The notes under the pieces are model-generated. The model was not told the DNA's origin, did not search any database, and was given only the letters and a program-made list of their open reading frames with translations. A stretch of DNA of 64,000 nt, taken from assembly GCF_055900595.2 (NCBI RefSeq), contig NZ_CM148325.1; one strand, given 5' to 3'. Both the position numbers and the translations under genes were made by a program. Position 1 is the stretch's first letter. Every line of letters begins with the position of its first letter. Positions 1 through 4,183 of the stretch are shown piece by piece.

Positions 1-718
1 AACCGATGACGAACGCGCACAGCTTTTATATGAGCGCGGAGTGTTGTATGATAGTCTCGGTCTGAGGGCATTAGCGCGTAACGATTTTTCGCAAGCGCTG
101 GCAATCCGACCGGATATGCCTGAAGTATTCAATTACTTAGGCATATATTTAACGCAGGCAGGCAATTTTGATGCTGCCTATGAAGCGTTTGATTCTGTAC
201 TTGAGCTTGATCCAACTTACAACTACGCGCACTTGAATCGCGGGATCGCATTATATTACGGCGGTCGTGACAAGTTAGCGCAAGATGATCTGCTGGCGTT
301 TTATCAAGACGATCCCAATGATCCTTTCCGTAGTCTGTGGCTTTATCTCGCCGAGCAGAAGCTCGATGAGAAGCAGGCTAAAGAAGTGTTAAAACAGCAC
401 TTCGAAAAATCGGATAAGGAGCAGTGGGGATGGAACATTGTCGAGTTCTACCTGGGCAACATTAGCGAACAAACGTTAATGGAAAGGCTCAAGGCGGACG
501 CAACGGATAACACCTCGCTCGCTGAGCATCTCAGTGAAACCAACTTCTATTTAGGTAAGTACTACCTAAGTCTGGGGGATTTGGACAGCGCCACGGCACT
601 GTTCAAACTGGCGGTTGCCAACAACGTTCATAACTTTGTTGAGCACCGATACGCATTGTTGGAATTATCGCTCCTGGGCCAGGACCAAGATGACCTGGCA
701 GAATCGGACCAGCAATAG
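1..718 (+). CDS. nlpI: Lipoprotein NlpI, TPR-repeat protein; 5' end lies upstream of the window
   Basis: Reading frame is open from base 2; translation (…[26 protein letters not shown]…ESDQQ*) matches NlpI C-terminal region as I recall it; stop at 716-718. Confidence 0.9.
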
Positions 719-824
719 CTGACGTACACATCAGCCCGTAATCTTTTTTGATTGCCATCACCTTAACGGGTGAGGGCGTTGTTGTTCGTTAATACACCTA
801 CTTTGAGCCGGTTCACACTTTTCA

Positions 825-905
825 ATGAAAATTGCTGATCAATTTCATGATGAGTTATGTAGACTGGCCGCCATTAATTTTGAGGCACACGTACTACATG
901 GCTGA
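825..905 (+). CDS. yrbN: Small 26-aa upstream ORF ([26 protein letters not shown]) ending on the deaD start codon
   Basis: ATG at 825; TGA at 903-905 overlaps deaD ATG (898-900) in the sequence ATGGCTGA. Not in the ORF track (under 60 aa). Matches my recollection of the small protein YrbN. Confidence 0.55.
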
Positions 906-2787
906 ATTCGAAACCACTTTTGCAGATCTGGGCCTGAAGGCTCCTATCCTTGAAGCCCTTAACGATCTGGGTTACGAAAAACCATCTCCAATTCAGGCAG
1001 AGTGTATTCCACATCTGCTGAATGGCCGCGACGTTCTGGGTATGGCCCAGACGGGGAGCGGAAAAACGGCAGCATTCTCTTTACCTCTGCTGCAAAATCT
1101 TGATCCTGAGCTGAAAGCACCACAGATTCTGGTGCTGGCACCGACCCGCGAACTGGCGGTACAGGTTGCTGAGGCAATGACGGATTTCTCTAAACACATG
1201 CGCGGCGTAAACGTGGTTGCCCTGTACGGCGGCCAGCGTTATGACGTGCAATTACGCGCCCTGCGTCAGGGGCCGCAGATCGTTGTCGGTACTCCAGGCC
1301 GTCTGCTGGACCACCTGAAACGTGGCACTCTGGACCTCTCTAAACTGAGCGGTCTGGTTCTGGATGAAGCTGACGAAATGCTGCGCATGGGCTTCATCGA
1401 AGACGTTGAAACCATTATGGCGCAGATCCCGGAAGGTCATCAGACCGCTCTGTTCTCTGCAACTATGCCGGAAGCGATTCGTCGCATTACCCGCCGCTTT
1501 ATGAAAGAGCCGCAGGAAGTACGCATTCAGTCCAGCGTGACTACCCGTCCTGACATCAGCCAGAGCTACTGGACTGTGTGGGGGATGCGTAAAAACGAAG
1601 CGCTGGTACGTTTCCTGGAAGCGGAAGATTTTGATGCGGCGATTATCTTCGTTCGTACTAAAAACGCGACTTTGGAAGTGGCAGAAGCTCTTGAGCGTAA
1701 CGGCTACAACAGCGCTGCACTGAACGGTGACATGAACCAGGCGCTGCGTGAGCAGACTCTGGAACGCCTGAAAGATGGTCGTCTGGATATCCTGATTGCG
1801 ACCGACGTTGCGGCCCGTGGCCTGGACGTTGAGCGTATCAGCCTGGTAGTTAACTACGATATCCCGATGGATTCCGAGTCTTACGTTCACCGTATTGGTC
1901 GTACAGGCCGTGCGGGGCGTGCTGGTCGTGCGCTGCTGTTCGTTGAGAACCGCGAGCGTCGTCTGCTGCGCAACATTGAACGCACTATGAAGCTGACCAT
2001 TCCGGAAGTAGAACTGCCGAACGCAGAGCTGCTGGGCAAACGCCGTCTGGAAAAATTCGCCGCTAAAGTACAGCAGCAGCTGGAAAGCAGCGATCTGGAT
2101 CAATACCGTGCACTGCTGAGCAAAATTCAGCCGACTGCAGAAGGTGAAGAGCTGGATCTCGAAACTCTGGCAGCCGCACTGCTGAAAATGGCACAGGGTG
2201 AACGTACTCTGATCGTGCCGCCAGATGCGCCGATGCGTCCGAAACGTGAATTCCGTGACCGTGATGACCGTGGTCCGCGCGATCGTAACGACCGTGGCCC
2301 GCGTGGCGACCGTGAAGATCGTCCACGTCGTGAACGTCGTGATGTTGGCGATATGCAGCTGTACCGTATTGAAGTGGGCCGCGATGATGGTGTTGAAGTT
2401 CGTCATATCGTTGGCGCGATTGCTAACGAAGGTGACATCAGCAGCCGTTACATCGGTAACATCAAGCTGTTTGCTTCTCACTCCACCATCGAACTGCCGA
2501 AAGGTATGCCGGGTGAAGTGCTGCAACACTTTACGCGTACTCGCATTCTCAACAAGCCGATGAACATGCAGTTACTGGGCGATGCACAGCCGCATACTGG
2601 CGGTGAGCGTCGTGGCGGTGGTCGTGGTTTCGGTGGCGAACGTCGTGAAGGCGGTCGTAACTTCAGCGGTGAACGCCGTGAAGGTGGTCGTGGTGATGGT
2701 CGTCGTTTCAGCGGCGAACGTCGTGAAGGCCGCGCGCCGCGTCGTGATGACTCTACTGGTCGTCGTCGTTTCGGTGGTGATGCGTAA
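898..2787 (+). CDS. deaD: ATP-dependent DEAD-box RNA helicase DeaD/CsdA (629 aa)
   Basis: Helicase motifs in translation: [30 protein letters not shown]; RG/RGG-rich C-terminal tail. Start placed at MAEFETTF (898) rather than the ORF-track ATG at 832. Confidence 0.95.
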
Positions 2788-2810
2788 TTCGCTGACCCGC
2801 AGAACTCTGC

Positions 2811-2828
2811 CGTAAAGTAAAATATACA
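2811..2828. promoter_or_regulatory. Candidate TyrR box (cGTAAA-N6-TaTACA) upstream of mtr
   Basis: Sequence cgtaaagtaaaatataca resembles the TGTAAA-N6-TTTACA TyrR box consensus; mtr is a known TyrR/TrpR-regulated gene. Manual pattern match only. Confidence 0.35.
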
Positions 2829-2858
2829 GCCCCGATTTTAACAATCGGGGCTTTTTTT
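2829..2858 (+). terminator. Rho-independent terminator downstream of deaD
   Basis: Stem gccccgatt / aatcggggc with 5-nt loop followed by TTTTTTT (2852-2858). Confidence 0.75.
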
Positions 2859-2867
2859 CTGTCTTTT

Positions 2868-2885
2868 GTACTCGTGTACTGGTAC
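2868..2885. promoter_or_regulatory. Candidate TrpR operator in the mtr promoter
   Basis: gtACTcGTgtACTgGTAC resembles the trp operator core (ACTAGT-TA-ACTAGT-AC); located about 55-70 bp upstream of the mtr ATG. Confidence 0.45.
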
Positions 2886-2938
2886 AGTGCAATGCATAAC
2901 AACGCAGTCGCACTATTTTTCACTGGAGAGAAGCCCTC

Positions 2939-4183
2939 ATGGCAACACTAACCACCACCCAAACGTCACCGTCGCTGCTTGGCGGCGTGGTGATTATCGG
3001 CGGCACCATTATTGGCGCAGGGATGTTTTCTCTGCCAGTGGTCATGTCCGGGGCGTGGTTCTTCTGGTCAATGGCGGCGCTGATCTTTACCTGGTTCTGT
3101 ATGCTGCATTCCGGCTTGATGATTCTGGAAGCTAACCTGAATTATCGAATCGGTTCGAGTTTTGACACCATAACCAAAGATTTGCTAGGCAAAGGCTGGA
3201 ACGTGGTCAACGGCATTTCCATTGCCTTTGTGCTCTACATCCTGACTTACGCCTATATTTCTGCCAGCGGTTCGATTCTGTATCACACCTTCGCGGAGAT
3301 GTCGCTGAATGTTCCGGCACGAGCTGCAGGTTTTGGTTTTGCGCTACTGGTGGCGTTTGTGGTGTGGTTGAGCACCAAAGCCGTCAGCCGGATGACGGCG
3401 ATTGTGCTTGGGGCGAAAGTTATTACCTTCTTCCTCACTTTCGGCAGTTTGCTGGGGCATGTGCAGCCTGCGACATTGTTTAACGTCGCGGAAAGCAATG
3501 CGTCTTATGCACCGTATCTGTTGATGACCCTACCGTTCTGTCTGGCCTCATTTGGTTATCACGGTAACGTGCCGAGCCTGATGAAGTATTACGGCAAAGA
3601 TCCGAAAACTATCGTGAAATGCCTGGTCTACGGTACGCTGATGGCGCTGGCGCTGTATACCATCTGGTTGCTGGCGACGATGGGCAACATCCCTCGTCCG
3701 GAGTTTATCGGCATCGCCGAGAAGGGCGGTAATATTGATGTGCTGGTACAGGCGTTAAGCGGCGTGCTGAACAGCCGTAGTCTGGATCTGCTGCTGGTCG
3801 TGTTCTCAAACTTTGCGGTAGCGAGTTCGTTCCTCGGTGTTACGCTGGGTTTGTTTGACTATCTGGCAGATCTGTTTGGTTTCGATGACTCGGCTATGGG
3901 CCGCTTGAAAACGGCACTGTTGACCTTCGCACCGCCTGTTGTGGGTGGTTTGCTGTTCCCGAACGGATTCCTGTACGCCATTGGTTATGCTGGCTTAGCG
4001 GCTACCATCTGGGCGGCAATCGTTCCGGCGCTGCTGGCCCGCGCATCGCGTAAACGCTTTGGCAGCCCTAAATTCCGTGTCTGGGGCGGCAAGCCGATGA
4101 TTGCACTGATTCTGGTGTTTGGTGTTGGCAACGCACTGGTGCATATTTTATCGAGCTTTAATTTGCTGCCGGTGTATCAGTAA
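2939..4183 (+). CDS. mtr: Tryptophan-specific permease Mtr (414 aa)
   Basis: Translation matches Mtr as I recall it (aromatic amino acid permease family; paralog of TnaB/TyrP); multi-pass hydrophobic membrane protein. Confidence 0.95.

Follow-up and report, generated by a model that had tools for sequence, protein, structure and literature searches.

An in-frame peptide repeat in the C-terminal tail of Escherichia coli DeaD and its natural length alleles

The 3′ end of deaD (csdA), the gene of the well-studied cold-shock DEAD-box RNA helicase of E. coli, encodes runs of similar arginine-rich blocks. This raises the question of whether the periodicity belongs to the DNA or to the peptide, and of how far it makes the protein vary in length between strains. 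An earlier note, made from the letters of the window (the whole 64,000-nt stretch of DNA analysed here), had placed an RG/RGG-rich repetitive tail across 2200–2787 and called it a likely hotspot for in-frame length variation. Pfam, NCBIfam, the PDB and several papers already cover the gene, the arrangement of its domains and the disordered tail; coordinates are collected in Table 1.

Table 1. Features of deaD and its repeat region, in window coordinates
Feature	Position	Strand	Basis or remark
deaD (csdA) coding sequence	898..2787	+	629 aa plus stop codon at 2785-2787
Arg/Asp-rich mixed-charge linker, aa 444-488	2227..2361	+	joins dimerisation and RNA-binding domains; predicted disordered
Two-copy 24-nt repeat in the linker	2257..2304	+	DRDDRGPR 2257-2280, DRNDRGPR 2281-2304; sequence, translation, repeat search
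DbpA-type RNA-binding domain, aa 489-558	2362..2571	+	Pfam PF03880, 73.6 bits; folded, non-repetitive
C-terminal Arg/Gly-rich tail, aa 559-629	2572..2784	+	Pfam DeaD_C on aa 568-629 (2599-2784); predicted disordered
Imperfect tandem array, about four 33-nt units	2599..2742	+	TRF period 33; in-frame unit table
33-nt units U1, U2, U3, U4	2599-2631, 2632-2664, 2665-2697, 2710-2742	+	11 residues each
12-nt insert (GRRF) between U3 and U4	2698-2709	+	
Exact 12-nt direct-repeat pair GGTGGTCGTGGT	2617-2628 and 2683-2694 (2617..2694)	+	flanks recurrent 66-nt deletion (607 aa)
8-nt direct-repeat pair GCGTCGTG	2607-2614 and 2739-2746 (2607..2746)	+	flanks 132-nt deletion (585 aa)
12-nt REGG units CGTGAAGGYGGT	2644..2688	+	2644-2655 duplicated in 633-aa allele; 2677-2688 deleted in 625-aa allele
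Intrinsic terminator of deaD	2828..2859	+	10-bp GC-rich hairpin then T run; terminator scan

Layout of the DeaD C-terminal extension

The gene had been correctly named DeaD. Residues 1–629 aligned with positions 1–628 of the NCBIfam DeaD equivalog NF008642 at 1397.5 bits, against a cut-off of 989, and five Pfam domains, all above their cut-offs, followed one another in the order PF00270 (DEAD), PF00271 (Helicase_C), PF25399 (DeaD_dimer), PF03880 (DbpA) and PF12343 (DeaD_C). The gene context nlpI–yrbN–deaD–mtr is kept, with an NlpI-like open reading frame at 41–718 and an mtr-like one at 2939–4183 in the window, and with nlpI, yrbN and mtr as the RefSeq neighbours. Full-length match, domain architecture and chromosomal context all identify a DeaD/CsdA orthologue. 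The dimerisation and RNA-binding domains have structures in the PDB (5GI4 and 5B88), determined on fragments of identical sequence. This is the same protein, with no difference in kind, as the E. coli DeaD/CsdA whose C-terminal extension has been described (PF25399, PF03880, PF12343; 5GI4, 5B88; Xu et al. 2017, as summarised in PMC11850223). At the DNA level the window carries a rare deaD haplotype, 96–98% identical to most E. coli, and its tail peptide is canonical. The terminator ends the transcription unit and lies outside the repeat; its hairpin is kept in other strains, though the 35 nt 5′ of it have diverged. An Rfam scan of positions 1–4000 found no RNA family.

Three parts make up the extension after the dimerisation domain. 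The linker, which has no Pfam domain match, contains 15 Arg, 9 Asp and 3 Glu in 45 residues. It is missing from 5GI4 and 5B88, and in the AlphaFold2 model it is without secondary structure, with mean pLDDT over 10-residue blocks mostly 49–65. The RNA-binding domain that follows has a solved structure (5B88) and pLDDT values of 94–98. The low-complexity tail claimed by the earlier note corresponds to PF12343, the 'DeaD helicase C-terminal disordered region', which was matched over its full profile (residues 568–629 on positions 1–62 of 62) with 45.6 bits against a gathering threshold of 23.3. The tail has 19 Arg, 21 Gly, 7 Glu, 5 Asp and 4 Phe in 71 residues and a net charge of +7. It is present in no PDB chain, the solved structure stopping at about residue 564, and AlphaFold2 gave it no secondary structure and pLDDT values of 45–56, far below those of the RNA-binding domain in the same model. 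We conclude that the tail is net positive and predicted to be intrinsically disordered, low pLDDT being a proxy for disorder only. In the wider DeaD family set, what follows the RNA-binding domain is nearly always a basic tail of low complexity, often with lineage-specific repeats; the composition of these tails is kept and their sequence is not conserved.

An Arg/Gly-rich tail invites comparison with the RGG box of eukaryotic proteins, a module of clustered RGG triplets that binds RNA or G-quadruplexes specifically. RGG/RG motifs reportedly fall into tri-RGG, di-RGG, tri-RG and di-RG classes with spacers of 0–4 residues, a scheme said to come from Thandapani et al. in 2013. The tail contains one RGG and three GGR, with no di- or tri-RGG and no tri-RG, and the linker contains no RGG, so that neither holds an RGG pair within 0–4 residues. 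Each does contain a di-RG (in the tail RGGGRG alone, in the linker RGPRG), but no class is weaker, and Arg/Gly-rich sequence often yields such matches by chance. The description 'RGG-rich' is loose. The acidic residues lie between the arginines, which makes the tail a mixed-charge polyampholyte and not a purely basic segment. [quoted passage not shown] Despite the Arg/Gly-rich composition, we regard an RGG box in this sense as unlikely.

Periodicity of peptide and DNA

Tandem Repeats Finder (TRF), the kind of check that had been suggested for this region, does find periodicity: an array of period 33 at 2600–2694 that comprises 2.9 copies at 72% matches and scores 106. Of 500 codon shuffles, just 0.2% reached this score (P = 0.002), and recurrence of 3- to 5-residue peptides in the tail exceeded that in all 5,000 residue shuffles (P < 2 × 10−4). 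A cruder test, global nucleotide autocorrelation of the tail against codon shuffles, was not significant (family-wise P = 0.11), whereas in the linker the lag-9 autocorrelation stood out (z = 4.4). TRF-score and peptide k-mer shuffles took over from global autocorrelation in our analysis, and the ranking of tail and linker reversed between the two approaches. Under the shuffles, the linker repeat, with two copies only, was not clearly above what its Arg/Asp-rich composition would give (TRF P = 0.19; k-mer P = 0.07–0.37). TRF found no repeat in the 210 nt of the RNA-binding domain (2362–2571). Of the repeat that had been extended over 2200–2787, the array at 2599–2742 is thus real, the linker copies are weak and the domain between them is non-repetitive, and the repeats span about 190 nt in total rather than 600. 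The motifs behind the original description are all present: DRDDRGPR and DRNDRGPR in the linker, a GERREGGR-type stretch in the tail, and the DNA unit ggtgaacgccgtgaaggtggtcgt, which occurs exactly at 2668–2691.

Codon usage in the tail is narrow, with CGT for 17 of 19 Arg and GGT for 14 of 21 Gly. When synonymous codons were permuted with the peptide held fixed, unit-to-unit identity was the same as in the real sequence or higher (P = 0.89 at lag 33; P = 0.45 at lag 45), so there is no sign of DNA homogenisation between units. We conclude that the DNA periodicity is wholly accounted for by the peptide repeat together with CGT/GGT codon bias. We do not take the alternative-frame open reading frames in the tail (2582–2815 on the plus strand and 2572–2913 on the minus strand) for genes; their Val- or Thr-rich translations are a by-product of the periodic CGT and GGT codons.

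Length alleles and length constraint

Length variation was surveyed in 5,425 complete E. coli genomes, in all of which RefSeq annotates deaD. The most frequent variant, a +12-nt allele of 633 residues in which REGG is duplicated, was found in about 160 genomes with a 213-nt allele-specific query. A −12-nt allele (625 residues) occurs in two genomes. A −66-nt allele (607 residues) occurs in three, the only genomes that matched its junction in one piece; its two haplotype backgrounds are separated by 36 differences in 1,871 sites, a sign that the deletion has recurred. A −132-nt allele (585 residues) was found in strain FXCREC035 alone. The linker contributes a −24-nt allele, seen only in strain F1053 (NZ_OY757949.1), that has lost exactly one DRNDRGPR unit through an in-frame deletion equivalent to 2275–2298, flanked by GACCGTGGYCCGCG at 2266 and 2290. 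Each of the five alleles preserves the frame, falls within one of the two repeats and is flanked by direct repeats of 8–14 nt. In the tail search of the 5,425 genomes, coverage fell below 80% in nine, four of which are explained; the counts given here leave aside roughly 5–7 genomes whose tail matches are partial or of low identity. The idea of an in-frame hotspot is thus borne out in kind, and the proposed comparison of C-termini across E. coli did yield indel alleles, yet in about 3% of the genomes only; more than 96% keep the canonical length. Four +12 carriers from three countries, each a complete genome with its own assembly, share one sequence over 3,211 nt, and the deviation is essentially one clonal event. 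In a comparison of the tail with the rest of the gene that was limited to 60 sampled genomes and a bit-score-ranked protein list favouring longer tails, the other 1,693 nt of deaD showed no net length change in 59 of the 60, the exception being the linker deletion.

Database proteins extend the range. Salmonella has alleles of +21, +22, +26, +1 and +2 residues, E. coli has +34 and two distinct alleles of −5, and E. marmotae has −2; at the nucleotide level, Salmonella and other E. coli entries span −15 to about +100 nt. The +22-residue Salmonella allele (P0105, P0112, P0113) is, at +66 nt, the reciprocal of the E. coli deletion. None of these length variants falls inside the RNA-binding domain, in which no indel event was seen among 120 relatives. 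A 71-residue tail was present in 96 of 120 close relatives, Salmonella entries included, and this length is common to Escherichia and Salmonella. Because more than 96% of the E. coli genomes are canonical, the variants are mainly one clone and the 71-residue tail is common to E. coli and Salmonella, we conclude that the repeat region of deaD is indel-prone by mutation and constrained in length.

These data bear on a reading in which the periodicity is a feature of the DNA itself, a recent or concerted tandem repeat of the variable-number (VNTR) or contingency type, with units kept alike by gene conversion and with frequent changes in copy number. As in in-frame bacterial VNTR genes, the period is a multiple of three, TRF detects an array, and whole blocks flanked by direct repeats are gained or lost, in one case recurrently. 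However, such loci combine near-perfect units with frequent copy-number differences, and the DeaD units are imperfect (72% alike over 2.9 copies) and show no homogenisation under synonymous permutation. Variation is rare, one length prevails across genera (the canonical E. coli length being that of Salmonella), and the only common variant is a single clonal event. Every change also preserves the frame, and there is therefore no on/off switching. Nothing relevant came up when the literature was searched for use of deaD as a VNTR or in typing. We consider a hypervariable DNA repeat very improbable here.

It is hardly credible that errors of sequencing or assembly in a low-complexity region account for the length variants: metagenome and Logan assembly proteins are often frameshifted at this very place (P0027, P0029, P0086, P0122, P0124) and the −132 and −24 alleles are singletons that could be assembly errors, but the +12 allele is identical in the four independent genomes, the −66 allele is found on two haplotypes and the −12 allele in two genomes, and the complete-genome variants are all multiples of three with direct-repeat flanks, as random assembly error would not produce.

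Probable mutational route and possible role of the tail

The reading that we favour, at a probability of about 0.8 for the whole, is that the DeaD C-terminal extension consists of the mixed-charge Arg/Asp linker, the folded DbpA-type RNA-binding domain and the 71-residue Arg/Gly/Glu tail, that this tail most likely serves as a non-specific, multivalent appendage that contacts RNA and associates with itself, and that its length is altered by slippage and held by selection. The mutational part would follow from how the peptide repeat is written. As the tail is encoded almost wholly by CGT and GGT codons, its DNA has many direct repeats of 8–14 nt whose spacing is a multiple of three. Slippage during replication, or recombination between such repeats, probably deletes or duplicates whole blocks from time to time, a route suggested by the microhomology at the junctions, and because of this spacing the frame is always kept. 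Selection would then hold the canonical length in most lineages.

As to function, the tail would supplement the RNA-binding domain with further affinity for RNA and a tether to it, and may favour self-association and phase separation, both of which have been reported for the full-length protein. According to the account of Xu et al. 2017 given in PMC11850223, CsdA consists of a core, a dimerisation domain, an RNA-binding domain and a C-terminal tail, and the activity of a construct depends on whether it has the tail. Purified full-length DeaD undergoes salt-dependent phase separation (PMC12758526). Full-length CsdA tends to aggregate, and a fragment of residues 1–443 is more soluble (PMC3814787); that fragment, however, lacks the linker and RNA-binding domain as well as the tail.

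Basic, low-complexity tails on a DEAD-box core are also found in RhlE1 and RhlE2 of Pseudomonas and in type II RhlB, where they are fast-evolving and reported to modulate RNA binding and phase separation (PMC11260450; bioRxiv 10.64898/2026.03.23.713837). The DeaD tail differs in its position, after folded RNA-binding and dimerisation domains, and in its make-up, a repeat of Arg, Gly and Glu with mixed charge where the others have a Lys/Arg-rich tract. There is a further likeness to eukaryotic disordered appendages. LAF-1, to which PMC12758526 refers, and Ddx4 are eukaryotic DEAD-box proteins with RGG/RG and FG/RG disordered domains, and DeaD shares with them an Arg/Gly-rich disordered segment, regularly spaced Phe, charge patterning and, as the full-length protein, phase separation. 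The DeaD tail, however, fails the RGG-motif definitions and is much shorter at 71 residues, and we know of no evidence for arginine methylation in bacteria. The resemblance is best taken as one of function, by analogy and not by homology.

A further step would be to regard the tail-length alleles (585, 607, 625, 629, 633 and about 663 residues in E. coli; +21 to +26 residues in Salmonella) as non-neutral. The number of Arg and Phe 'stickers' would then tune RNA tethering and the threshold for condensates, and thus growth or persistence in the cold; the repeat would be an evolutionary tuning knob, and the +12 clone, like the recurrent −66 deletion, would be adaptive. We think this doubtful. The natural alleles are nevertheless ready reagents for relating repeat number to RNA binding, condensates and cold adaptation in a bacterial helicase tail.

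A repeat-built DeaD tail is real but ordinary and carries little weight on its own. What is added here is modest: a list of the in-frame alleles that occur naturally in tail and linker, together with the microhomologies at their junctions, and the finding that a tail prone to indels nevertheless keeps its 71 residues across Escherichia and Salmonella. For annotation there is a practical warning in that length differences and frameshifted database versions of DeaD cluster in this stretch. DeaD entries of 646 and 651 residues mostly reflect the choice of start codon and not variation in the tail.

Gene layout and repeat content

Positions 2200-2787 are the 3'-terminal 588 nt of a gene of 1,890 nt (898-2787, + strand) that lies between an upstream NlpI-like open reading frame (ORF) and a downstream mtr-like permease. 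The product of this gene matches the NCBIfam DeaD equivalog end to end (1397.5 bits; cut-off 989). The feature is the known C-terminal extension of DeaD, already modelled in Pfam and structurally dissected. The earlier note, which had described it as an RG/RGG-rich tail encoded by imperfect tandem repeats, was largely right.

Features of deaD and its length alleles
Feature	Residues or length	Window position	Strand	Source and remarks
DEAD	aa 30-196			Pfam
Helicase_C	aa 232-340			Pfam
DeaD_dimer (dimerisation domain)	aa 374-443	C-terminal end, to 2226, in 2200-2787	+	Pfam; AlphaFold2: helices, pLDDT mostly 80-89
Linker, Arg/Asp-rich, no Pfam domain	aa 444-488	2227-2361	+	AlphaFold2: no secondary structure, pLDDT mostly 49-65
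Linker repeat, DRDDRGPR + DRNDRGPR		2257-2280 + 2281-2304	+	two copies
DbpA RNA-binding domain	aa 489-558	2362-2571	+	Pfam; AlphaFold2: α/β fold, pLDDT 94-98
Tail	aa 559-629	2572-2784	+	AlphaFold2: no secondary structure, pLDDT 45-56
DeaD_C, "DeaD helicase C-terminal disordered region"	aa 568-629			Pfam
Tail unit U1	11 residues	2599-2631	+	in-frame reading
Tail unit U2	11 residues	2632-2664	+	in-frame reading
Tail unit U3	11 residues	2665-2697	+	in-frame reading
Insert GRRF between U3 and U4		2698-2709	+	in-frame reading
Tail unit U4	11 residues	2710-2742	+	in-frame reading
Allele +12 nt	633 aa	2644-2655		~160 genomes; unit CGTGAAGGYGGT (REGG) duplicated
Allele -12 nt	625 aa	2677-2688		2 genomes (Ec1120, N921); REGG unit lost
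Allele -66 nt	607 aa			3 genomes (14EC047, two O145:H28 strains); two units lost
Allele -132 nt	585 aa			1 genome (FXCREC035); deletion between GCGTCGTG at 2607 and 2739
Allele -24 nt, linker	621 aa			1 genome (F1053); exactly one DRNDRGPR unit lost

Tandem Repeats Finder (TRF) detected periodicity in the tail as an array of period 33 (2600-2694; 2.9 copies, 72% matches, score 106). This score was reached by 0.2% of 500 composition-keeping codon shuffles, and recurrence of 3- to 5-residue peptides in the tail exceeded that in all 5,000 residue shuffles; autocorrelation of the tail, a cruder statistic, was not significant. In the linker, TRF gave weak period-9 rows only, and the two-copy repeat was not clearly above the extreme composition in shuffles (TRF P=0.19; k-mer P=0.07-0.37), lag-9 autocorrelation being the sole statistic to stand out. 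TRF found no repeat in the RNA-binding domain. Since repeats are confined to the tail array and the linker pair, about 190 of the 588 nt are repetitive; the repeat attributed to 2200-2787 is real, but its extent had been overstated. The peptide motifs and the 24-nt DNA unit quoted for it are present, the latter exactly at 2668-2691.

TTG 832 opens the longest reading frame (651 aa), and the curated deaD start is ATG 898 (629 aa); in many database DeaD entries with 646 or 651 aa the choice of start codon is the sole difference, which can be mistaken for length polymorphism. The 26-aa small ORF yrbN (825-905), annotated by RefSeq in other strains, ends within the deaD start region, its stop TGA overlapping deaD codons 2-3 (ATGGCTGA). 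An antisense ORF inside deaD (1252-2529, - strand, 425 aa) is without supporting evidence and most likely spurious.

Length alleles in E. coli and its relatives

A tail query (2590-2790) matched in 5,425 of 5,426 complete E. coli genomes, with 165 genomes at 90-95% identity and 9 aligned over less than 80% of the query. From fetched example genomes we identified five non-canonical alleles, all multiples of three and each bounded by a direct repeat. Across 3,211 nt, four carriers of the +12 allele from three different countries show no difference and thus reflect one clonal event; the two -12 carriers share an identical haplotype. The -66 deletion is bounded by exact 12-nt repeats (GGTGGTCGTGGT, at 2617 and 2683), and its two backgrounds, differing at 36 of 1,871 sites, suggest that it arose independently more than once. 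The linker deletion is bounded by GACCGTGGYCCGCG at 2266 and 2290. The remaining 1,693 nt of deaD (898-2590) served as a control: in each of the 5,425 genomes at least 80% of this query aligned, and 59 of 60 evenly sampled genomes, on which the length comparison rests, showed zero net length change; the exception, lowest-ranked of the 60, was the linker deletion. Assembly artefacts are possible sources of the two singleton alleles and unlikely ones for alleles that recur in several independent genomes. The in-frame variation expected between strains is borne out by five alleles among 5,425 genomes, with the qualification that this hotspot is rare in its variants and constrained in length. A literature search found no paper describing deaD tail or linker alleles.

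We also examined the top 120 relatives from the protein collection by bit score; since this ranking favours duplications, the list locates events but is no guide to their frequency. Among these 120, in-frame tail events comprised +4, +34 and two different -5 aa changes in E. coli entries, -2 aa in E. marmotae, and +1, +1, +2, +21, +22 and +26 aa in Salmonella, the +22-aa allele being reciprocal to the -66-nt deletion of E. coli. In the 443-residue core there were four singletons, of which three are large duplications and most come from metagenome assemblies; the RNA-binding domain had no events. A 71-residue tail was found in 96 of the 120, Salmonella entries included, and tail length is conserved across genera despite mutational instability. 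Outside the tail, large tandem duplications that keep the frame occur in four single entries (P0002, P0003, P0004 and P0005); three lie in the helicase core (+113, +60 and +33 aa) and one, of +27 aa in a Shigella flexneri entry, crosses the boundary between linker and RNA-binding domain. These could be real or assembly artefacts.

The window's own deaD (898-2800) is 100% identical only to that of strain Z0117EC0005 (dog). Only 8-18 of the 5,425 complete genomes are at least 99% identical to it and the rest are at 96-98%, which suggests an uncommon lineage or a recombinant segment. Over the ~35 nt after the stop (2788-2822) the window differs strongly from other E. coli, showing many mismatches as well as a 2-nt gap directly after TAAT; the terminator hairpin 3' of this stretch (2828-2852) is conserved, and another strain carries 5 inserted nt farther downstream, near 2890.

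Repeat DNA and codon usage

The tail uses CGT for 17 of 19 Arg and GGT for 14 of 21 Gly codons. When synonymous codons were permuted with the peptide held fixed, unit-to-unit nucleotide identity was the same as or above that observed (P=0.89 at lag 33; P=0.45 at lag 45), and nothing pointed to recent duplication of tail units or to gene conversion among them. We conclude that the nucleotide repeat is a peptide repeat written in strongly biased codons and no separate DNA feature. This test, the imperfection of the units and the rarity of variants all speak against a VNTR or contingency locus at the DNA level; the alleles are unremarkable products of a repeat within coding DNA. Whole blocks would be gained and lost through slippage, or through short-homology recombination, between the many CGT/GGT-rich direct repeats that lie in phase, and selection would then remove most of these changes.

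Alternative-frame ORFs across the tail (2582-2815, + strand; 2572-2913, - strand) are Val-rich and Thr-rich by-products of the CGT/GGT periodicity. In several database 'DeaD' proteins (P0086, P0122, P0124 and P0128) a frameshift leads into exactly this Val-rich frame, through either sequencing errors or true frameshift mutations in the repeat.

Predicted disorder, composition and proposed function

Solved CsdA (DeaD) fragments cover the dimerisation domain (5GI4, ending at about residue 445) and the RNA-binding domain (5B88, residues ~481-564), and no solved fragment covers the linker or tail. An AlphaFold2 model of residues 371-629, built on a 60-sequence alignment with the folded RNA-binding domain as internal positive control, predicts that both segments are disordered. 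They are strongly charged, mixed-charge segments: the 71-residue tail has 19 R, 21 G, 7 E, 5 D and 4 F (net charge +7), and the 45-residue linker 15 R, 9 D and 3 E. A census of tail motifs gave one RGG, three GGR, RGGGRG as the only di-RG match, and no di-RGG or tri-RGG. The tail falls short of the definitions of a bona fide RGG box, and "RGG-rich" was a loose label that overstated its character.

As PMC11850223 summarises Xu et al. 2017, CsdA is a dimeric helicase consisting of core, dimerisation domain, RNA-binding domain and C-terminal tail; its main RNA anchor is the RNA-binding domain, and ATPase and unwinding activities differ between constructs with and without the tail. Full-length CsdA is prone to aggregate, and residues 1-443 are more soluble and keep ATP hydrolysis (PMC3814787). 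Phase separation of purified DeaD depends on protein and salt, and in cells DeaD assembles into dynamic foci (PMC12758526). Multivalent electrostatic and Arg-Phe contacts, most likely made by the tail and probably also by the linker, would raise RNA affinity non-specifically and drive self-association. Other DEAD-box helicases of bacteria, RhlE among them, have disordered tails that probably work like that of DeaD (PMC11260450); eukaryotic RG/FG-rich helicase appendages resemble it by analogy only. In more distant relatives, what follows the RNA-binding domain is not conserved in sequence, is almost always basic and of low complexity, and often carries its own lineage-specific repeats.
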